From Escherichia coli (GTDB taxonomy: Bacteria; Pseudomonadota; Gammaproteobacteria; Enterobacterales; Enterobacteriaceae), in assembly GCF_003790525.1 (NCBI RefSeq), contig NZ_CP033635.1: a stretch of 64,000 bases of DNA. One strand, written 5' to 3'. Numbering within the stretch: the first letter of the stretch is position 1; every line of letters begins with the position of its first letter. The notes under the pieces are model-generated. The model saw only the letters and a program-made list of their open reading frames with translations. It was not told the origin of the DNA and did not search any database. Position numbers and translations under genes: made by a program. Shown one piece after another: positions 16,063-62,855 of the stretch.

Positions 16063-17586
16063 TTGATAATCAGCGAAATGCAACGCAAGCTTGCCACATG
16101 GGCAGCCACCGATCCGTCCCTACGGATTCAACGGCTGCTGCGTCTGATAACACAACCAGAATGGCTGGCTGAAGCGGCGCGGATCACGCTTTCATCAAAG
16201 GGGGCGAATACCCCCGGTGTTGATGGCGTGAACAAAACAATGCTACAGGCCAGACTGGCTGTTGAGCTGCAAATCCTCAGGGATGAATTACTCTCAGGCC
16301 ACTACCAGCCCTTGCCCGCCAGGCGGGTTTACATCCCTAAAAGCAATGGCAAACTGCGACCACTGGGTATCCCCGCGTTGCGGGATCGTATTGTTCAGCG
16401 GGCCATGCTGATGGCGATGGAGCCGATATGGGAGAGTGATTTTCATACGCTCTCATATGGCTTCCGGCCTGAGCGCAGTGTCCACCACTCGATCCGCACG
16501 GTGAAATTACAGCTCACCGACTGCGGTGAAACCCGGGGACGCTGGGTGATTGAAGGCGACCTGTCCAGTTACTTCGACACCGTACATCATCGACTGCTGA
16601 TGAAGGCTGTACGCCGCAGGATCAGTGACGCACGTTTCATGACTCTGCTGTGGAAAACCATCAAGGCGGGACATATCGATGTCGGTCTCTTTCGGGCGGC
16701 CAGTGAAGGTGTGCCACAGGGCGGTGTTATATCGCCGCTATTGTCGAACATCATGCTGAATGAGTTCGATCAATACCTGCATGAGCGCTACCTGAGCGGG
16801 AAAGCAAGAAAAGATCGGTGGTACTGGAATAACAGTATCCAACGGGGCCGAAGTACGGCGGTCAGAGAAAACTGGCAGTGGAAACCCGCGGTGGCGTACT
16901 GCCGCTATGCCGATGATTTTGTCCTCATCGTCAAAGGCACCAAAGCACAGGCGGAAGCCATCAGGGAGGAGTGTCGGGGTGTGCTCGAAGGCAGTCTGAA
17001 ACTCAGGCTGAACATGGATAAGACTAAAATCACCCATGTTAATGACGGCTTTATCTTTCTGGGGCACAGGATCATTCGCAAACGCAGTCGTTATGGCGAG
17101 ATGCAAGTGGTCTCAACGATCCCGCTGGAGAAAGCCAGAAACTTCGCCGCATCGCTGACAGCACTGTTATCAGGCAACTACAGTGAAAGCAAAGTCGATA
17201 TGGCTGAACAACTCAACCGAAAACTGAAAGGCTGGGCCATGTTCTATCAGTTCGTTGATTTTAAGGCCAAAGTCTTCAGTTATATCGACCGTGTCGTGTT
17301 CTAGAAGCTGGCTCACTGGCTGGCCCGCAAATACCGTACAAGTATCGCTTCCCTGATGAGGTGGTGGTGTAAATCACCGAAACCGGGTCAGAGCAAAACG
17401 TGGGTTTTATTTGGTAAAACCAATCACGGCAAGCTCAGCGGCGAAATACTGTACCGGTTGGTGGGGCAAGGCAAGAAGCTGTTCCGCTGGCGGCTACCCG
17501 AAGGTAATCCCTATCTGAGGACGGAAACCAGAAAGACGTATACATCGCGCTTTACAGAAGTGGCAATGGCGTTCGCCAGCGTTTAA
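16063..17586 (+). pseudogene. Group II intron-encoded reverse transcriptase/maturase, interrupted by in-frame TAG at about 17302..17304
   Basis: RT motifs including ...CRYADDFVLIV...; X-domain motif ...KLKGWAMFYQF...; ORF 16063..17304 and in-frame ORF 17356..17586 (...KLAHWLARKYR...) together end just before domain V. Confidence 0.75.
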
Positions 17587-17591
17587 ATGGA

Positions 17592-17626
17592 GAGCCGGAT
17601 GCGCTGAAAGGTGCATGTCCGGTTCG
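17592..17626 (+). ncRNA. Group II intron domain V (catalytic hairpin)
   Basis: GAGCCGGATGCGCTGAAAGGTGCATGTCCGGTTC: AGC triad, GAAA tetraloop, two-stem hairpin typical of domain V. Confidence 0.75.
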
Positions 17627-17676
17627 GGGAGGAGAGGCAGGGAAATAGTCCGACTACGCCCTGCCTCTTACTCTAC

Positions 17677-18128
17677 TGCGTACCGATGAGGGCTGGTTGT
17701 ATCTCACAGTAGTCATCGACCTGTGGTCACGCGCCGTCATTGGCTGGTCGATGTCACCGCGAATGACAGCACAACTGGCCTGTGATGCACGGCAAATGGC
17801 GTTGTGGCGGAGAAGACGCCCGGAAAGCGTCATTGCTCATACGGACCGTGGTGGTCAATACTGTTCAGGGGATTATCAGGCGCTGCTGAAGCGACACAAC
17901 CTGCGTGGCAGTATGAGTGCGAAAGGCTACTGTTATGACAATGCCTGTGTGGAAAGCTTCTTTCATTCGCTGAAGGTGGAATGTATCCACGGGGAACGCT
18001 TTAGCAGCCGGGAAATAATGCGGGCAACGGTGTTTAATTATATCGAGTGTGATTACAATCGCTGGCGTCGTCACAGTGCCTGTGGCGGTCTCAGCCCGGA
18101 ACAATTTGAAAACCATAATCTCGCTTAG
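17677..18128 (+). pseudogene. IS3 orfB, 3' exon
   Basis: ...[30 protein letters not shown]...HNLA; ORF track 17697..18128. Confidence 0.8.
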
Positions 18129-18158
18129 GGCCGTGTCCACATTACGTGGGTAGGATCA

Positions 18159-18602
<444 letters not shown>

Positions 18603-18665
18603 TCAGTCTGGTAACTATCGTAAACCGTTCAGTGGGAAGGATATCAAGAGCACTGTAGCTTTTTA

Positions 18666-18827
<162 letters not shown>

Positions 18828-19805
18828 TCACTGGATTCCCGGTATGAGTAACTTTTATTAACGATAAGCCAGGCTATTTGTGCATTGGTGTTGAGGTGAG
18901 AATAGCACCAGTCAGGTGAGCAGATTATAATGTTACGAGACTTAAGCACCTCTGTAGCTCCCATGGTCTGATAGTTTCTCCCGTATACCGCTCATGCAAC
19001 TCCCGCATTAAAATATACTGTTCCTTCCGGATAATTACGTTAAAATATACACCTGCGTGCATCTGTGTCAGACTCCGTTAGATACCAGCGTACATTGTAA
19101 ACATGCCGGATGCACGCAATACAATAATCGGTCTTTTCGGAGTTATAGTCACCAGGCTGGCATCCCGTAAATATGTATCAGGTAGCAATTCAGGAAGCGA
19201 ACAAAAGCGCCTGGAGAAGGTTATCTCTGATAATAATTTACATGAAATGTCTCCTTTATTCTTCGCGAATAAGGCCTTCAGTGTTCTCCCCTTTTCAGCA
19301 ATTCTTACCGTAGTAATCACTCCTGCCTGTGTATAACACGAGAATTGCCAGAGTTTAACGTTTCGGTATCGTTATCCTGCATGATGTTGAACAGAACCGG
19401 GCGTGAATTCTGCGCCAGAATTTTCTTTCGAGGAACATTCCGGGTTATCTGTAGTACAGGAGGAGATTTTCTCCTATTTCAAATAAAATTCAATGACAGG
19501 TGAATATTTAAATATAAATGCATCGCTTCAACAGAGAAATCGGAATTACGCCCGGAACCAGGCCTGAATGAATAATGGAGGAGGTAAAATAATATTATTG
19601 ATGAAAATATCAAATTAAGTCCCCCTTCTCCTTCCCCAGCTTAAATATACTTACTTTTTCACTGGATAATATGTTATTGAATTACAAAGTTGATCCTGAT
19701 ATACATGATTTCCGGCTCTTGCATCCAGTGATAACTTTATATAGTCCTGCAAAGGCGAACTTCGTAAAAGTATACTTTTCTGTTGTAAGCATTGAGGTAT
19801 CGAAA

Positions 19806-20030
19806 ATGAGTGAGAATACCGGAAAATCCCATGAAAATAAAATGGTTATTATTGACTACGGGGAATATGATGAATACCTTCGTAACGCGTGGTTCCGAGG
19901 TTTTCGGGAAGGTTATGATATGGCGATGAAATTTGGATTAGGCTGCCAGCAATGTTATGAAACAGGTGAAAAAATAGCATGCGCAAGAGCTGAAGAATGC
20001 CGTAAAAAGATTAAGGTAATAAAACACTGA
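19806..20030 (+). CDS. Hypothetical small protein (74 aa, four Cys), low-GC
   Basis: ORF 19671..20030; internal start MSENTGKSHENKMVIIDYGEYDEY...; no recognisable family. Confidence 0.25.
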   Translation: MSENTGKSHENKMVIIDYGEYDEYLRNAWFRGFREGYDMAMKFGLGCQQCYETGEKIACARAEECRKKIKVIKH

Positions 20031-20158
20031 AACGGGCTGTCTGATATTTCTGTGAGCTAAAAAGACACCGTAATACAGGTATCTCACAGTAACTGAAAGA
20101 TATGCACATGCCGCCAGGGAAGATTAAGGGTAAGGGAGGATATCCCTTACCTGATTGA

Positions 20159-20683
20159 TTATGGGATGATACCACAGGCAATTCTTGCACCACCGCCACC
20201 TAGAGGTTCAGGATGGTCATCATGATTATCACCTCCTGCGTGGAGCATTAGCGAACGGCCATCGAGCTCCTTTAATTCAGATAGTCTTGGCGCAAGCACC
20301 GGGTAGGTTGCTTTTCCGTCATGAGTGACATAAAGCGCAGGGAGATCACCTAGGTGGCCATCAGGAGACCATGGACCGAGATGCTTCCCTGTTTTTTCCG
20401 GGTCAAAGTGACCACCTGCAGATAAAGCAGCGACAGTTTTTCCATCTTTCAGGGCAGGAGCACAACTTGCGTTTTCATGTACATGAAAACCATGAATGCC
20501 GGCGGGTAAGGAGTGAAGATCAGGGGTGAACAGCAGCCCGTAGGGTGTCTTCTGGATGGTTATTTTACCAATATTTCGCTCTTTTCCGTCACTATCAACA
20601 AGATTCATTGTTACATCTTTGGTGGCTGCATATCCACAGGATGATGTAGCCAGAATCACAAAGGCAATAAGTTTACGTTTCAT
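20159..20683 (-). CDS. sodC: Periplasmic Cu/Zn superoxide dismutase (horizontally acquired paralog)
   Basis: Signal peptide; Cu/Zn SOD motifs ...[10 protein letters not shown]..., ...[12 protein letters not shown]..., ...GDLPAL..., ...[10 protein letters not shown]... Confidence 0.85.
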
Positions 20684-20938
20684 AAACCCTCTGTTAACAG
20701 GTTAAAGATTTACTCAATAACTGTTGCGAAATAACAGTCAGCCAGATGATAGCTTATGATAGTTATTGAATGTGACTATCAGTGTAATTAATTATGCAAA
20801 TTAGAAGGAATGTTATGTGTGAAGCGCCCCTGTATCCCGCTCATACTGGCTAACCCAGACACGCAGAGTCTGTGGCGTACAGCCAGCATTTGAGGCAATG
20901 GAACAAATTACCCCAATTGTGAATCATACTCATCCTGT

Positions 20939-21491
20939 TTACCTCTTTCTCAGGGAGTTTAGTCTCCAGGATTCCCGGAGCAGTTCAAAGTGCCCTGTGC
21001 TGCTTAAAGTGCCGCTGCATGCCACCACATGGCTGAGCAGCAACAGGTATTGTTGTTCCTTCATGTTGTTCACGCAACCAGCGTAATACCACCGGCGAGG
21101 ATGGACTGTCAGTGTGATTACGTTCAGTAATACGTTCATAAAAGGAAGTTCAGAATGCATGAATCTGTTGTCCGTTGATGTTTCCTTCTGTCGAATTGTG
21201 TGTGAAGTGGACAATCAGAAAATGCGGCCAGTGATCCACTGCCTGTTGAATAAAACGCCGGATGTCTCCCGGCTCTGCAAGTAATGCTTCAGTTTCCTGC
21301 ACTATTTTATCCCTGTTGAATTTTGTCAAACCGGTGCAGACACGCAGGAAAGTATGCCAGCACTGGTGTAATGCCAGTAACATACAATAAGAATGAAATG
21401 ACGAATCAGTCAGGAAAGGGTGCCCCCATTGGCAACCCATTGACTGAGCAGAGGATACAATCAGGAAGGTTAACGAGAGTATCTCCGACAT
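20939..21491 (-). pseudogene. Fragmented copy of an island gene also present at 48328..49122
   Basis: ...IRRFIQQAVDHWPHFLIVHFTHNSTEGNINGQQIHAF... matches ...IRRFIQQAVDHWPRLLAVHFTLHSAEGNINGQQIHAF... at 48328..49122; two ORF pieces in different frames. Confidence 0.35.
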
Positions 21492-21559
21492 CAGGGGCAG
21501 GATTGATTTCTACAATACCAGCGCCGGCATTGAGCCTGTACATAGATTTATGTAATTGC

Positions 21560-22337
21560 CTGATTTTGATATGTTCAATTCAACATCAAATGAAAGCTAA
21601 ATTATGGACGACACACAATTGCAGGCTCTGGCTAACGAACTGGCCAAAAATCTCAAAACCCCTGAAGATCTCAGTCAGTTCGATCGCCTGCTCAAGAAAA
21701 TAAGTGTTGAGGCAGCTCTCAACGCTGAACTGACTCACCATCTGGGACATGAAAAAAATCAGACCAAATCGGGAACCAACTTCCGTAATGGCTATTCCAC
21801 GAAAACCGTCACCACTACCGACGGGCCGATGGAATTACGTACTCCACCTGATCGTGATGGTTCCTTCGAACCACAACTGGTGAAGAAAAATCAGACCCGC
21901 ATTACCGGCATGGACAACCAGATCCTGGCGCTGTATGCCAGAGGGATGACTACCCGCGAAATTACCTCAGCCTTCAAAGAAATGTACGACGCCGATGTCT
22001 CGCCCACGCTGATATCCAAAGTGACCGATGCGGTTAAAGAACAGGTCTCTGAATGGCAAAACCGACCGTTGGATGCACTGTATCCCATTGTTTATCTTGA
22101 CTGTATTGTGGTTAAGGTTCGTCACAGCGGGAGTGTCATTAACAAAGCGGTGTTCCTCGCGCTGGGCATCAATACCGACGGTCAGAAAGAGCTGCTGGAT
22201 ATGTGGCTGGCCGAAAATGAAGGTGCAAAGTTCTGGCTGAATGTACTGACGGAACTGAAAAATCGCGGCCTGAACGATATCCTTATCGCCTTCGTGGACG
22301 GCCTGAAAGGCTTCCCGGAAGCGATTAATGCCGTCTA
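21560..22337 (+). mobile_element. IS256-family copy, 3'-truncated, divergent 5' third
   Basis: Left-end motif TGTAATTGCCTGATTTTGATATGTTC; transposase ORF 21604..22395 nucleotide-identical to copy 2 from ...FEPQLVKKNQTRITGMDNQ... onward; homology ends at about 22337. Confidence 0.6.
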
Positions 22338-22705
22338 TCCCATAAAGCCGGATACGCTCATTTTGGGCGGGATCTCCACAAGCATATGGATATGATCTGC
22401 ACAGCACTCAGCTTCAAGAATCCGTACACTTTTCCACTCACACAGCTTTCTCAAAATACTGCCTGTTGCTTTACGCTTCTCTCTGTAGAACACTTTTCTT
22501 CGGTATTTTGGCGCAAAAACTATGTGATATTTACAGTTCCATCGGGTATGCGCTAAGCTCTTTTCGTTCCCCATTGGGACCCCCTTTTGATTTCTTGTTT
22601 GACACTTGCAGTTGCCAGACCGCAAGGTGTTTTAACAAATCAAAAGGGGTTTTAATAACTGGCTCAAAGCTGAAAGCTTTCCGGCCCCCAGCCTAGCTGG
22701 GGGTT
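22338..22705 (-). mobile_element. IS200 remnant: left end and first about 79 codons of tnpA
   Basis: MGNEKSLAHTRWNCKYHIVFAPKYRRKVFYREKRKATGSILRKLCEWKSVRILEAECCADHIHMLVEIPPKMSVSGFMG then stop; left-end palindrome CCCCCAGCCTAGCTGGGGG. Confidence 0.6.
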
Positions 22706-23810
22706 TTCTGTGCACAAAAATCCGGAAACGAGTGAGCGTTTCAGGATTCTTAAACAGACCCTGGATCGGTCAACTGCTCCTAAACTGATCGGCATTACAC
22801 CTGTCGGCTGCCGTTTTTTCAGCTCCGTGATCCATGGGCCGGGTTCTTTGGTCAGCAATGCTGCCGCCCTTGCCCCATGGATAAATAATGTCCGGTGGTA
22901 GGTATCCCCACGTTTGCTTATCCCCAGCATGCGAACCTTCCCAGCGGACCCCGTCTGCTTCGGCACCAGACAGACATAAGCGTCAAACTCACGTCCGGAT
23001 TTAAATGCTGAGGCCTCGCCCATGGTGGCGACCACCGCCGTAGCGATTAACGGCCCCACACCGGGGATTTCCATTAGGCGCTTACAGTTTTCGCTCTGCC
23101 GTGCCACGCTGTTAATCTGTTTATCAAGGCCATCTATCTGCATGCCCAGCTCACTCAGTCTGTTGTACTGGTATTCAAGCACAGTGATGAGATACGGCGG
23201 CAGGTTCGTCTTCATTCGCTCTAGGGCTGTCGGTAGCTTTCTGTCCATCGCTGTCCAATCTTTGTGGAGGATTTCACCAAACTCGAGGAGCGTGCCAAGG
23301 GTATTAATATGCGAGGTTCTGAACTTCACCAGTTGTCTGCGCGAACGGTGCAGGACCAGAACTGACTGCTTCTCTTCCGTTTTAACAGCGATATCTTTAC
23401 TGGGCTGCTGTACCGCCATCCAGATAGCACGCGCATCCATCACATCATTTTTGTTGCCCATGACGAATGCTTTAACGAAGCGAGCTTGCAACAGCCGAAC
23501 TTTGTGTCCCAGTTTTTTCCAGTTCCCTCGCCCAATGTTGGGAGCCTCCACAAGCCTCCATACCTATCAGACAGGGTTCCCGGTTGCTGAAGAACGTCAG
23601 AAAATCCTTGCTACGTAGCTGCTTGTCCACCACTTCGCCCGTGTACTCATTGATGAAGTGAACCTGAATCAGATACTTTGCGATATCAACGCCAACCGGT
23701 GTATATTTCATTTGTGGAGTCGCCAGTCTGAGGGCGCTTTTGCATCCCGTATTGGGCACTATGATGCCGGAAATCTGAGAGGCTCCACAGCAGACAATTT
23801 TACCCTTCAT
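22664..23810 (-). pseudogene. IS110-family transposase (second, different copy), frameshifted; element about 22706..23870
   Basis: N-terminal ORF 23472..23810 (...MKYTPVGVDIAKYLIQVHFI...) and C-terminal ORF 22664..23551 in different frames; C-terminal tail reads through into the IS200 hairpin. Confidence 0.6.
22685..22710 (+). terminator. IS200 left-end hairpin followed by T-run (terminator-like)
   Basis: Perfect 8-bp stem CCCCCAGC/GCTGGGGG followed by TTTTCT on the plus strand. Confidence 0.4.
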
Positions 23811-23950
23811 CCATCACAGTGCACCTCTCTTAACAGGGCAGGATGTGTTCAGTACATTTCTCCTTTTATGGTTACAGTTTATCCATCATGGCGTAATTGA
23901 AGGCTGTCGTGAAGGAGAGGAAGAGCATCTCATCACTTACAAACAAATAC

Positions 23951-23970
23951 ATTAATGATAACCATTTGCA
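23951..23970. promoter_or_regulatory. Fur-box-like sequence upstream of sitA
   Basis: ATTAATGATAACCATTTGCA resembles the GATAATGATAATCATTATC consensus (partial match). Confidence 0.4.
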
Positions 23971-23990
23971 TTTGTATAGATTATGCTATA

Positions 23991-24012
23991 AAACATAGCC
24001 GTTGCTATGTTT
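23991..24012. promoter_or_regulatory. MntR-type operator palindrome upstream of sitA
   Basis: AAACATAGCCGTTGCTATGTTT, inverted repeat AAACATAGC/GCTATGTTT, about 35 bp upstream of the sitA start. Confidence 0.55.
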
Positions 24013-27839: not shown

Positions 27840-28510
27840 ACTGCAGGTGATTCAGGGGGGCCAGTCTAACCGTTAAGAACACGTTCCCGAGATGAGCGTT
27901 TCCGTTGTCGCTCATGTAAAACATGTTTTCCAGCTCACTTACTCTTGGTGAAGTCAGGAAACCCGGCGTTAAGGAGCAGATCGTTGAAATGGCACATAAC
28001 GGCGCAGGTGTCCGTGATACCCATGAACACTGAAAATCGGCATCAATACCGTCATACGGACATTAAAAATGTTTTCGCCCCGGCGGATAACATCTACGCC
28101 AGTCGTTCACGCTGATGTTGCCCTTATCTTTGAAACTTGATGAGCAGTTAAATTTCGTTGGCAGCAAGGCGCAACAACACTGGTCTGCTTACAACACTAA
28201 AACTGCGGTGTGTTGGCTTATTCTTTCGGGCCACGGAATGATGAGACCTGTCGGGAACTGTTAGCCCTGTTGACTTCGTTCTATATCGGCATAGTGACCA
28301 GCAATGACAGGGGCTGCAACGTCAGAGAAGTGACGAAGGAGAAATACCTGACCGGTAAAATATTCACGCAACCTATTGAACTTAACAACCTGCCCCTCCG
28401 CACCCGCATCAAGCGGCTGGCACGTAAAACAATCTGCTTCTCGCGTTCCGTGAAAATCAACGAAAAAGTCATCGGTTCCGTCATTGAAAAGAACATGTTC
28501 TACTGATTGG
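27840..28510 (+). pseudogene. Degenerate IS1-family element (InsA/InsB-like frames with stops)
   Basis: InsB-like ...LTGKIFTQPIELNNLPLRTRIKRLARKTICFSRSVKINEKVIGSVIEKNMFY; related to copy at 46690..47400. Confidence 0.45.
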
Positions 28511-28758
28511 AAGCACTACCACATTTTTCATAGAATACCCAAGATCTTAGCGCAGATCAGTTGAAATGTTGGCACCTATGTTACCAATACTACTCAATGG
28601 CTACTACGGCAGTAGGTTTTCGCTTACCTTTTCATACGGGCAATGAAATGAGGATATGCGATAAATTTCAGTCAAAGATACATAAAACAGGCATAATGTT
28701 ATTCAGTGGTGAGCAGTCCGTTCCGGAGACGGAATATCTTTTTAAGGCCGTATATCAG

Positions 28759-58621: not shown

Positions 58622-58639
58622 ATCAGAAAGGGGATTCTG

Positions 58640-59284
58640 ATGAGCAGCATTATCACCATCACAGTGTATACGCTGGATGAACTTTCCTGCCCGGTACGGG
58701 GAAAAGCCCGCGACGGGTACCGTCAGCATCATGCTGACAGCAACTGGTATGAAAACGTGTATGAGGACTTCAGGGCGGTCTGTGACATTTTCGGAATTGA
58801 CCTCCGCCAGCGCGTTTTCCGGCTCAGCAACGGCAGGTTTATGGAAGAGCCGTGCATCTGGTTCAGCGGATGCTGCAGCCAGGGGGACGGAGCCTGTTTT
58901 GAAGGACGCTGGCACTGGCAGCCGGCGACAGCCCGGATAATCCGGAAGTATGCCCCACAGGAGCATGAACTCCATCGTATCGCGGATGCCCTGCAGGCGG
59001 TGCAGAAGCGTAACTTCTGGCAACTGCAGGCTGAAATCCACCGCCGGGGACGCTACTGCCATCCGTACAGCATGGATATCACTGTTACCCGGAACAGTCC
59101 GACTGGTCAGACTATGACAACAGATGCGGAAGCCGCTGTCAGCGAAGCCCTGCGCGACCTGGCCTTATGGCTGTACCGTCAACTGGAAAACGAGCACAAC
59201 AGGCTGACCTCAGATGCCCCTGTGGATGAGGCCCTTCTCATCAACGAATACACCTTCACCGAAGCCGGTCTGCGCACCGGCTGA
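58640..59284 (+). CDS. Hypothetical protein (214 aa) inserted between the DUF987-like gene and the antitoxin
   Basis: Cys-rich segment ...CIWFSGCCSQGDGACFEG...; family not recognised. Confidence 0.45.
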   Translation: MSSIITITVYTLDELSCPVRGKARDGYRQHHADSNWYENVYEDFRAVCDIFGIDLRQRVFRLSNGRFMEEPCIWFSGCCSQGDGACFEGRWHWQPATARIIRKYAPQEHELHRIADALQAVQKRNFWQLQAEIHRRGRYCHPYSMDITVTRNSPTGQTMTTDAEAAVSEALRDLALWLYRQLENEHNRLTSDAPVDEALLINEYTFTEAGLRTG

Positions 59285-59333
59285 CCTGTCAAAGTTAAAC
59301 TATCATTCAACGATTTTCTGTGAGGATTTTATC

Positions 59334-59702
59334 GTGTCAGACACACTCCCCGGGACAACGCATCACGACGACAATCACGACCGCCTCTGGTGGGGACTGC
59401 CCTGCACCGTGACGCCCTGTTTCGGGGCACGTCTGGTGCAGGAGGGTAACCGGTTGCATTACCTTGCCGACCGTGCCGGTATCAGAGGCCGGTTCAGAGA
59501 TGCGGATGCGTACCATCCGGACCAGGCCTTTCCGCTGCCGATGAAACAACTGGAGCTCATGCTCACCAGCGGTGAACTGAATCCCCGCCATCAGCATACC
59601 GTGACACTGTATGCGAAGGGGCTGACCTGTGAAGCCGACACCCTCGGCTCCTGTGGTTACGTTTATCTGGCTGTTTATCCGACGCCCGAAACGAAAAAGT
59701 AA
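59334..59702 (+). CDS. Type IV antitoxin, CbeA/YeeU/YfjZ family
   Basis: GTG start after GAGGA; [54 protein letters not shown]... Confidence 0.75.
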
Positions 59703-59791
59703 ATCATCAGAATAATCTTCTGCTCCGGCCTGGTGTTTTCACCACGCCACTGTCCCATTTTTTATCTCTGCATATCAGGAAAATCTTCATT

Positions 59792-60166
59792 ATGAAAACA
59801 TTACCCGACACGCATGTACGGGAGGCATCGTGTTGCCCGTCTCCCGTCACCATCTGGCAGACACTGCTCACCCGGTTACTGGACCAGCATTACAGCCTTA
59901 CGCTGAATGACACACCGTTCGCGGATGAACGCGTGATTGAGCTGCATATTGAGGCAGGCATTTCACTGTGTGATGCGGTGAACTTTCTCGTGGAAAAATA
60001 CGCGCTGGTGCGTACCGACCAGCCGGGATTCAGCGCCTGTACCCGCTCTCAGTTAATAAACAGCATCGATATCCTCCGGGCTCGCAGGGCGACCGGCCTG
60101 ATGACCCGCGACAATTACAGAACGGTAAATAACATTACCCTGGGTAAGTATCCGGAGGCGAAATGA
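59792..60166 (+). CDS. Type IV toxin, CbtA/YeeV/YpjF family
   Basis: 124 aa, [43 protein letters not shown]... Confidence 0.75.
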
Positions 60167-60588
60167 TGAAACTGGCCCTGACATTGGAAGCAGACAGCGT
60201 TAACGTACAGGCACTGAATATAGGGCGAATTGTCGTTGACATTGATGGTGTTGAGCTCACTGAACTGATTAACAAGGTCGCTGAATACGGTTATTCACTC
60301 CGCGTGGTGGATGAACGTGACGCTACCGAAACACCGGCGACTTCTGCCAGCTCTCATCAGTTGCCGGAAGACAATACAGTGATACAGAGCGTGATGCCAT
60401 TAACCACTGAAACAGCGCTGGATATCCTCATTGCGTGGCTGCAGGACAATATCGACTGCGGGTCCGGAATTATTTTCGACAACGATGAGGATAAAACGGA
60501 TTCGGCAGCATTGTTGCCCTGTATCGAACAGGCCAGGGAGGATATCCGTACCCTGCACCAACTGCAACTTCTGCACCAGAACCGGTGA
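60163..60588 (+). CDS. Hypothetical protein (YeeW-like position)
   Basis: 141 aa acidic protein, start overlaps toxin gene stop. Confidence 0.4.
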
Positions 60589-60672
60589 ATCTCACTCACC
60601 AGACTTCATTCTCCTGACGCCAGCCTGAACAGAGCTGGCGTTTTCATTTATCTGCAAAAAGGAAAAACGATT

Positions 60673-61458
60673 ATGTCAGATACCACACTCTCCCGCCCGG
60701 AGGTGGTCAGCGGGCATACGGACGTTATCTGTTCCACCTCAGTCTGCCACATTCTGGCTGTACGAAAGAGTACACTGTTGCCAATCGACACACTTATCCG
60801 GCAACTGGCTAAAATCTCAATTCTGACGGAAAGTATTGGAGGTAAAACCGCCCCGGACTGGGCCATGAAACAGGATTTTCGCTGTGGCTGCTGGCTGAAG
60901 GAGAAACAGGAAACCGCAATGAAAGCCATTACCCGCAACCTTGACCGTGAAATCTGGCGTGACCTGATGCAACGTTCAGGGATGCTTTCCTTAATGGATG
61001 CACAGGCCCGTGATACATGGTACCGCTCACTGGAGTACGATAATTTTCAGGAAATCAGCGAAGCGAACATTCTGAGCACATTTGAACAAGTGCACCAGAA
61101 CAAGGATGAGGTGTTTAAGCGGGGAGTGATTAACGTCTTCAGGGAACTGAGCTGGAATTATAAAACCAACTCTCCCTGTAAATTTGGAAGTAAAATCATT
61201 ATCAACAATCTGGTGAGATGGGACCGGTGGGGATTTCATCTTATCACCGGACAACAGACTGACCGACTCGCCGACCTGGAAAGAATGCTACATCTGTTCA
61301 GCGGCACCCCCATCCCCGGCAACGGGAAAAACATAACCATTCATCAGGATGGCACATCCAGTCTGTTCAGGGTAAAGAGTGCTATGAAGATGAGATGTTC
61401 AGTATCAGATACTTTAAGAAGGGCTCCGCGCATATCACGTTTAAACATCCGGAACTAA
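60673..61458 (+). CDS. Hypothetical protein, last gene of the island module
   Basis: 261 aa ORF; family not confidently recognised. Confidence 0.4.
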   Translation: MSDTTLSRPEVVSGHTDVICSTSVCHILAVRKSTLLPIDTLIRQLAKISILTESIGGKTAPDWAMKQDFRCGCWLKEKQETAMKAITRNLDREIWRDLMQRSGMLSLMDAQARDTWYRSLEYDNFQEISEANILSTFEQVHQNKDEVFKRGVINVFRELSWNYKTNSPCKFGSKIIINNLVRWDRWGFHLITGQQTDRLADLERMLHLFSGTPIPGNGKNITIHQDGTSSLFRVKSAMKMRCSVSDTLRRAPRISRLNIRN

Positions 61459-61685
61459 TGGAAAGCTGAACTGGTAATTTCTAAGTATCTGCCCTCTAAT
61501 TCGATTTCGTAATACAGAACATCGAGTCAAACAGAATAATGGAGGAAGACAGAAAAAAGAGGAAAAATAGCACCAGAAGAATTCGAACTGCGCAAGGGGC
61601 CTTATTGGTGGCCCCTAAAAAACACAAACAAAACAACAAATGAAAAAACAATAGATTATACATCTAGTTTTATTCCTAAGGAGAG

Positions 61686-62855
61686 ATGATGCGCCATTGT
61701 GGGTGGTTGCTGGGATTGTTATCGCTGTTTTCTTTGGCAACACATGCCAGTGACTGGCAGGAAATAAAAAATGAGGCCAAAGGACAAACCGTCTGGTTTA
61801 ACGCCTGGGGCGGCGATACCGCAATTAACCGCTATCTCGACTGGGTTAGCGGCGAGATGAAAACCTATTACGCTATAAACCTGAAGATTGTTCGTCTGGC
61901 GGATGCCGCAGACGCGGTAAAGCGCATTCAGACCGAAGCTGTTGCCGGACGTAAAACGGGCGGCTCGGTGGATCTGCTCTGGGTGAACGGCGAAAACTTC
62001 CGCACCTTAAAAGAGGCCAATTTATTACAAACGGGCTGGGCGGAGACTCTGCCCAACTGGCGCTATGTCGACACACAGCTGCCGGTGCGGGAAGATTTTT
62101 CAGTGCCTACAGAAGGGGCTGAATCGCCCTGGGGGGGCGCGCAACTGACGTTTATCGCCCGCCGCGATGTTACGCCGCAGCCACCACAAACGCCGCAAGC
62201 CTTACTGGAGTTTGCTAAAGCCAATCCCGGCACGGTTACCTATCCGCGCCCACCGGACTTTACCGGCACGGCGTTTCTTGAACAGTTGCTGATTATGCTA
62301 ACGCCAGATCCCACAGCATTAAAAGAAGCGCCGGACGATGCGACTTTCGCCCGCGTCACTGCGCCCTTGTGGCAATATCTTGATGCACTGCATCCGTATT
62401 TGTGGCGCGAAGGAAAGGATTTCCCGCCTTCGCCCGCGCGGATGGATGCTCTGCTGAAAGCTAACACATTGCGCCTGTCGCTGACCTTTAACCCTGCACA
62501 TGCGCAGCAAAAAATCGCCAGCGGCGATTTGCCTGCAAGCAGTTACAGTTTTGGTTTTCGCGAGGGGATGATTGGCAACGTCCATTTCCTCACCATTCCT
62601 GCCAACGCGAATGCCAGTGCTGCGGCGAAGGTAGTTGCCAATTTCTTGCTCTCACCCGATGCGCAACTGCGTAAAGCAGATCCCGCTGTCTGGGGCGATC
62701 CTTCTGTTCTCGATCCGCAAAAACTGCCTGACGGGCAGCGCGAAACATTGCAATCGAGAATGCCGCAGGATCTGCCGCCGGTACTGGCTGAACCGCACGC
62801 AGGTTGGGTAAATGCGCTGGAACAAGAATGGCTACACCGTTACGGTACGCATTAA
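61686..62855 (+). CDS. ynjB: ABC transporter periplasmic substrate-binding protein YnjB
   Basis: 389 aa, signal peptide MMRHCGWLLGLLSLFSLATHA; sequence as I recall for E. coli YnjB. Confidence 0.85.
   Translation: MMRHCGWLLGLLSLFSLATHASDWQEIKNEAKGQTVWFNAWGGDTAINRYLDWVSGEMKTYYAINLKIVRLADAADAVKRIQTEAVAGRKTGGSVDLLWVNGENFRTLKEANLLQTGWAETLPNWRYVDTQLPVREDFSVPTEGAESPWGGAQLTFIARRDVTPQPPQTPQALLEFAKANPGTVTYPRPPDFTGTAFLEQLLIMLTPDPTALKEAPDDATFARVTAPLWQYLDALHPYLWREGKDFPPSPARMDALLKANTLRLSLTFNPAHAQQKIASGDLPASSYSFGFREGMIGNVHFLTIPANANASAAAKVVANFLLSPDAQLRKADPAVWGDPSVLDPQKLPDGQRETLQSRMPQDLPPVLAEPHAGWVNALEQEWLHRYGTH

Follow-up and report, generated by a model that had tools for sequence, protein, structure and literature searches.

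Beside sodC, in a 64,000-nucleotide stretch of Escherichia coli DNA (hereafter the window), lies a piece of sequence that resembles a gene of an intact alpA-linked module 27 kb away in the same island and on the same strand. How did this piece come to be there, and does it bear on the origin of sodC? An earlier note had described it as a duplicate fragment of a gene at 48328..49122 and had proposed that the sodC region derives from a second island of the same family, since broken up by IS insertions. Self-BLAST of the window paired 21030-21382 with 48587-48955 in the same orientation (370 columns, 79.7% identical; E 2e-91; 333 bits). Since the aligned sequence is not low-complexity, the match cannot be put down to a short low-complexity stretch, and the resemblance is real. 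By MAFFT alignment, the homology does not stop there but, in the direction of alpA, reaches 21531 of the fragment and ~49060 of the resident copy, and includes a 64-nt block that is present in the fragment and in other strains and absent from the resident spacer. The true homologous block of the fragment is therefore 21030-21531, and the matches from other genomes span the same interval. The span first proposed, 20939-21491, had been built from two spurious ORFs (20939-21214 and 21150-21491), which are a mixture of spacer, out-of-frame and IS sequence and were rejected as gene pieces. Calling the fragment a duplicate is also misleading, given an identity of only ~80% between the two copies. 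The remaining self-matches of the window are IS copies (IS1, 27931-28520 against 46821-47413; IS256; others) and tandem repeats inside a YadA-like adhesin gene. The region around the fragment is made up as follows.

18500..20747, minus strand: sodC module, consisting of sodC, a 74-aa hypothetical gene and an AT-rich flank (delimited by collinearity with other E. coli)
19806-20030, plus strand: 74-aa hypothetical gene
20159-20683, minus strand: sodC, allele WP_000823671.1
20748..20815, strand not applicable: 68 orphan nt between the sodC flank and the IS629-like remnant
20816..20987, minus strand: left end and internally deleted orfA remnant of an IS629/IS1203-like element of the IS3 family (~88% matches)
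20988..21029, strand not applicable: 42 orphan nt, unaligned to family members
21030..21302, minus strand: pseudogene remnant of the 182-aa backbone gene, codons 1 to ~97 of 182 (alignments, blastx, PGAP)
21150..21152, minus strand: nonsense codon TGA in place of Cys51 (alignment columns 498-500)
21303..21531, minus strand: retained alpA-to-gene spacer, conserved and non-coding, 229 nt (alignment with six other loci)
21532..22341, plus strand: truncated IS256-family copy with a terminal inverted repeat beginning GAGCCTGTACAT (self-match, end alignment, PGAP)

The coding part of the fragment belongs by sequence to the PF27752 family, with a DNA identity of 80-88% and, by blastx, 73-81% amino acid identity to family members across the first ~90 residues. 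Its GTG start (21302-21300) aligns at the same position as in those members, and the likeness to intact PF27752 genes covers the first ~97 codons and the spacer (80-85% at the nucleotide level). Unlike those genes, the fragment is truncated and has lost both its alpA neighbour and its 3' half. The lesions were read directly off an alignment with six intact or near-intact loci. Codon 51, which is TGT or TGC in all six other copies and encodes a nearly invariant cysteine in the family alignment, is TGA; a 12-nt deletion lies at the junction 21139/21140 (alignment columns 510-521), a frameshifting 5-nt deletion at 21050/21051 (columns 611-615), and all sequence past ~codon 97 is missing. No intact frame of about 170-182 aa, the size typical of the family, is left, and the fragment is unable to encode the 182-aa protein. 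On the spacer side, 229 nt can still be aligned, stopping ~36 nt short of the expected alpA stop codon (in one fetched locus, L003, the match ends at 6520 and alpA begins at 6557), and alpA itself is replaced by the IS256-family end at 21532. PGAP/RefSeq annotates 21048-21302 on the minus strand as a pseudogene ([quoted passage not shown]). A truncated ORF of 77 aa within the fragment bears a precomputed PF27752 assignment; Pfam, NCBIfam and PHROGs scans of the fragment's ORFs gave no match. Judged by these lesions, the fragment is a pseudogene of the PF27752/"UCP030791" family and not a functional member, a status already recorded in RefSeq, and as a feature it is ordinary.

IS sequence bounds the fragment on both sides. 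The terminal inverted repeat of the IS256-family copy begins at 21532, exactly where the backbone homology ends, and plasmid IS matches begin at the same base (query base 33). The copy (21532-22340) is 85% identical to 41619-42426 by self-BLAST and is labelled "IS256 family transposase, incomplete" by PGAP. On the other side, window positions ~20827-20996 match annotated IS1203/IS629/IS3-family transposase genes at ~88% in two pieces, and in three fetched loci (L014, L015 and L018) a complete IS3-family element has an end that matches the remnant at 95%. Its inverted-repeat tip, at about 20987, faces the fragment. The 42 orphan bases at 20988-21029 have no match among the fetched loci outside copies of the same island, and the 68 orphan bases at 20748-20815 have no other match there either. 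That IS insertions broke up the second module, as had been suggested, agrees with these two boundaries. Beyond the IS256-family copy, which is cut by a truncated IS200/IS605 tnpA remnant (22338-22574), a match to the Hfq-binding sRNA STnc490 of Rfam (22584-22705, minus strand; 133.7 bits against a gathering score of 56) abuts and partly overlaps that remnant.

The resident module, with which the fragment has to be compared, contains the following features.

48328..48876, minus strand: intact backbone gene of 182 aa, WP_001167455.1 (PGAP)
48877..49076, minus strand: alpA-to-gene spacer of 200 nt, shortened by a 64-nt deletion compared with the fragment and five other strains (alignment)
49077..49313, minus strand: alpA-like HTH gene of excisionase/regulator type (Pfam Phage_AlpA 2e-10; PHROG 6e-10)
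49382..49954, minus strand: hypothetical gene of the backbone module (conserved gene order)
50311..51042, minus strand: YagK/YfjJ inovirus-Gp2-like gene (Pfam YagK_YfjJ_C 3e-36)

The order within 48328-51042, namely the Gp2-like (YagK/YfjJ) gene, the hypothetical gene, the alpA-like HTH gene (its PHROG match is named "excisionase and transcriptional regulator") and then the 182-aa gene, is identical in MS15236, UTI89, F6326-C1, CUPF09 and E7. Downstream of the 182-aa gene the cargo varies between islands and includes cdiBA, MADS defence genes, ProQ and others. DNA of this family is widespread, being matched in 3766 of 5426 complete genomes, at a median of two places and up to nine per genome. 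The gene of 48328..49122 named in the earlier note was over-called, since the PGAP gene is 48328-48876. A 264-aa ORF over the longer interval, with a possible ATGA overlap with alpA, was rejected as a gene; other strains have stops upstream of the GTG, and their indels there (1, 2, 7, 11 and 12 nt) are not multiples of three, so this region is non-coding. Next to the resident gene and convergent with it, a ProQ/FinO-family gene on the plus strand (47802-48310) is frameshifted in the window; an intact 477-nt gene of that family occupies the same position in F6326-C1 (locus L010, 3263-3739).

The usual spacer between alpA and the 182-aa gene measures ~266-278 nt, against 200 nt in the resident copy with its 64-nt deletion. 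The resident spacer also lacks an 11-nt block bearing an AAGGA ribosome-binding-like motif, which stands upstream of the GTG in UTI89, F6326 and E7. Because of the deletion and the absent block, expression of the seemingly intact resident gene may be altered. Two hairpins were noted in this part of the module. About 95 nt directly 3' of the alpA stop codon (48985-49079, minus sense) are nearly invariant across six islands that are otherwise 70-85% identical; the same element occurs in loci L008 (~4465-4559) and L010-L012, and the fragment keeps only its right arm (~21495-21531). RNAalifold predicts an imperfect hairpin of ~21 bp and a small second hairpin, with no U-tract following. Six pairs carry one-sided, pair-preserving changes, none a compensatory double change, and pair breaks occur only where alpA is a pseudogene. 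Neither the resident spacer nor that of the fragment has an Rfam match. The element may serve the alpA module as a cis-regulatory RNA or DNA sequence. The second hairpin is GC-rich and precedes GTTTTATT; it lies 30-45 nt inside the coding sequence of both copies (21273-21257 and 48847-48831, minus strand). It was flagged as terminator-like, is conserved family-wide and encodes EPGDIRRFI, and it may be an attenuator or a mere coding constraint.

The 182-aa protein itself gave no match in Pfam, NCBIfam and PHROGs scans. It is 99% identical to a cluster of 270 members; the family, of which WP_001534800.1 is another example, has PF27752 as its precomputed Pfam assignment and is named "UCP030791 family" by PGAP. 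The PF27752 family is small: an exhaustive HMMER search found only 61 representative clusters in 1.84 billion, with about 20 full-length remote relatives at 25-39% identity. Four of ten remote relatives showed sub-threshold, in-register matches to YagK_YfjJ_C (PF11726) at 18-20 bits against a gathering score of 25.8; the resident protein had no match to PF11726 even at E 10. Profile-profile comparison (hhalign) with the neighbouring Gp2-like proteins was in register over 129 columns (probability 77%, E 2e-5). YagK/YfjJ proteins (PF11726; inovirus Gp2 and rolling-circle Rep-like) occur in prophages CP4-6 and CP4-57 of E. coli K-12, and the 182-aa gene shares its module with a bona fide YagK/YfjJ gene. 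On the other hand, the 182-aa family lies below the PF11726 gathering score, and the His-hydrophobic-His motif, a His-x-His (H101, H103) invariant in the Gp2-like neighbours, is replaced at the aligned site by an invariant Arg-Cys (R90-C91, in "MRCLLLL"). The family is modelled by AlphaFold confidently as a palm/ferredoxin-like fold when the more diverse alignment is used (a shallow alignment gave a pLDDT of 58), and its fold matches fall on generic palm domains no less than on Rep domains. The 182-aa gene appears to encode a Rep/Gp2-like fold that lost its His-x-His motif, and its product is probably a Rep/Gp2-derived, non-catalytic, nucleic-acid-binding protein of the island backbone. This fold and the hairpin 3' of alpA are mildly useful by-products of the analysis; neither is specific to the fragment.

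From which module, then, does the fragment come? Over shared alignment columns, the fragment and the resident copy are 80.3% identical (87.1% in the coding part and 68.9% in the spacer), and the fragment is 84.6% identical to the UTI89 copy and 82.9% to the E7 copy. The resident copy in turn is 85-86% identical to the copies of UTI89, CUPF09 and E7. A recent segmental duplication should leave two nearly identical copies, each the closest relative of the other, whereas both copies here are nearer to those of other strains. With 80% identity to the resident copy against as much as 85% to those of other strains, the fragment is, by these identities, not a recent duplicate of the resident gene. 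The higher identity to UTI89 and the retention of the 64-nt block imply that it must, to judge from the alignments, derive from a second, diverged alpA-type backbone module and not from the resident one. The best non-self DNA identity to the fragment in complete E. coli genomes is ~84%, and no intact precursor of its lineage was found there or in a collection of 5.8 billion protein clusters, where the matches are mostly partial proteins and the only one at 98% or more to the repaired translation is the fragment's own 77-aa truncated ORF. The donor island is for this reason inferred and not observed. The proposal of a second island of the same family therefore stands as far as a second alpA-type module is concerned; that the sodC region belonged to it is a separate matter, taken up below.

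These findings point to the following explanation. The fragment is very likely inert debris of a second, diverged alpA-type module, cut on either side by IS-associated events during the piecemeal assembly of the island, and its adjacency to sodC is secondary. The source would have been a diverged module with the order Gp2-like gene, hypothetical gene, alpA-like gene and 182-aa gene. An IS256-family element would have removed alpA and everything upstream of it, and an event involving the IS629-like element would have removed the 3' half of the 182-aa gene. The surviving codons would afterwards have gained the nonsense mutation, the 12-nt deletion and the 5-nt frameshift. The pathogenicity island of >100 kb would have been assembled by IS-mediated joining of pieces from several sources, the sodC cassette being one such piece, the sit operon another and the aerobactin genes a third. 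The homology, the lesions and the IS boundaries can be read straight from the sequence comparisons; the order of these events and the lack of function of the fragment are what we infer; read as IS-cut debris of a second module, the fragment has its position explained without a tie to sodC. It is an ordinary case of mosaic decay in a pathogenicity island.

A different account makes sodC the former cargo of an island formed by the second alpA-type module: IS insertions would later have destroyed the backbone and left the fragment next to that cargo. Such a history would suit the arrangement, in that the cargo of intact islands lies downstream of the 182-aa gene and sodC lies on that side of the fragment, on the same strand, with IS debris on the fragment's flanks. 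The surroundings of sodC make it unlikely. Upstream of sodC, the ABC-transporter and IS66 contexts and the IncF plasmids all carry the 3' end of a substrate-binding-protein (SBP) gene, and the window leaves this common upstream flank at 20747/20748, with 64 nt of it remaining. Because of this departure, the present neighbourhood of sodC is a derived junction. The opposite flank is collinear with the ABC-transporter context for >2.2 kb. Collinearity with the ABC-transporter/sodC region known from other E. coli strains holds for the whole of 18500..20747, within which the GC content drops to 35-39% (19350-20100). IncF plasmids from E. albertii and E. coli carry a cassette, corresponding to ~19936-20747 and comprising sodC and part of the small neighbouring ORF, that is 99.7% identical to the window; on these plasmids the fragment is absent and the cassette is bounded by IS2 on one side. 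An alpA-like gene (Phage_AlpA/HTH_17) or a PF27752 gene was found within 8 kb of an identical SodC in none of ten distinct contexts, in several of which sodC follows a ROK/GDPD/ABC-transporter/SBP operon; the plasmid copies have no such gene beside them either. A tblastn search of 1-43000 with all ORFs of at least 60 aa from 47800-62000, looking for further shared backbone around sodC, recovered the fragment alone. No tRNA was found in the window, and the annotation near sodC consists of IS remnants and cargo only. Finally, between sodC and the fragment there are two junctions and an IS remnant.

The break in the SBP flank, the 99.7% identical plasmid copies and the lack of alpA linkage indicate that sodC came from a different region and was joined secondarily; its independent circulation and its derived junction are seen directly in these comparisons. 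The origin of the sodC region in the second island, as put forward in the earlier note, is unsupported, in view of the ten contexts without an alpA-like or PF27752 gene and the flank break. As to the allele itself, WP_000823671.1 is diverged, other plasmid and prophage sodC alleles being only 74-77% identical to it, and its exact protein sequence appears in 9874 blocks of the protein collection. The allele is highly mobile: it is found next to the ABC-transporter operon, within the sit/iuc island and on IncF plasmids from both E. coli and E. albertii.

Retention of the fragment for a function is still less probable. It might serve as a promoter reading toward sodC, or encode a truncated protein from the 113-aa ORF at 21150-21491. 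The sodC strand bears a good sigma-70-like site, TTGACA-17-AATAGT, at 21329-21301, sodC is left with only 64 nt of its common upstream flank, the arrangement persists in at least 74 genomes, and a "hypothetical protein" is annotated at the fragment in some genomes. However, the region holds three promoter-like sites against 2.0 expected by chance, and the terminator-like hairpin with its T-run (21273-21257) lies just downstream of the site in question. In SMS-3-5 the fragment is split by IS2 and the island is still kept, and clonal descent would account for the persistence. The ORF is non-coding spacer plus 51 codons to the premature stop. It is accordingly very doubtful that the promoter region of the fragment was co-opted to transcribe through the IS629-like remnant into sodC; were this so, a relic of an island backbone would control a periplasmic superoxide dismutase in these extraintestinal/avian E. 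coli lineages. Least credible of all is the reading that the resident 48328-49076 was duplicated within the genome and that one of the copies then decayed: the two copies do lie in one island, on the same strand and 27 kb apart, but their identity of 80.3% (68.9% in the spacer) is below that of the resident copy to other strains (85-86%) and of the fragment to UTI89 (84.6%), the fragment keeps the 64-nt block deleted from the resident copy, and no flanking sequence is common to both.

The arrangement described here is shared by other genomes. The window is part of a chromosomal island of E. coli, of which the interval 18000-24000 is matched at about 100% in 52 complete genomes; the exact fragment is present in 53 and its left junction in 74, so that at least 74 share the truncated arrangement, and the difference between 74 and 53 includes genomes such as SMS-3-5, in which an extra IS2 splits the fragment. 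Its maintenance in 74 genomes could reflect shared descent or selection. The surrounding >100 kb are a patchwork of IS remnants and unrelated cargo, including iha, ICE remnants, amiC, ibrAB, a group II intron, sit, iuc/iut and a YadA-like adhesin.

Islands carrying sitABCD and iucABCD-iutA in extraintestinal E. coli and Shigella comprise SHI-2/SHI-3-type and ColV-plasmid-derived modules. The window resembles such IS-riddled sit/iuc pathogenicity islands in that its cargo (sit, iuc/iut, iha, ibrAB and sodC) is split by truncated IS elements and gene scraps, and in that the sodC cassette is common to IncF plasmids; nothing in it is unusual in this respect. A literature search found no paper specific to this island or gene pair. 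The fragment is one more marker of the piecemeal, IS-mediated assembly of the sit/aerobactin/sodC island and has little wider weight, and the junctions at 21532, about 20987 and 20747/20748 can mark the lineage of the complete genomes, at least 74 in number, that have this arrangement. Two further features of the mosaic may be recorded. The YadA-like trimeric autotransporter adhesin gene (43731-45326) contains tandem repeats at 44215-44629 (86-94% identity at an offset of ~100 nt). Between ibrAB and sodC, a group II intron lies within an IS3-family element (16063-17676); its Rfam domain matches at 17590-17676, and its ltrA reading frame has an internal stop.
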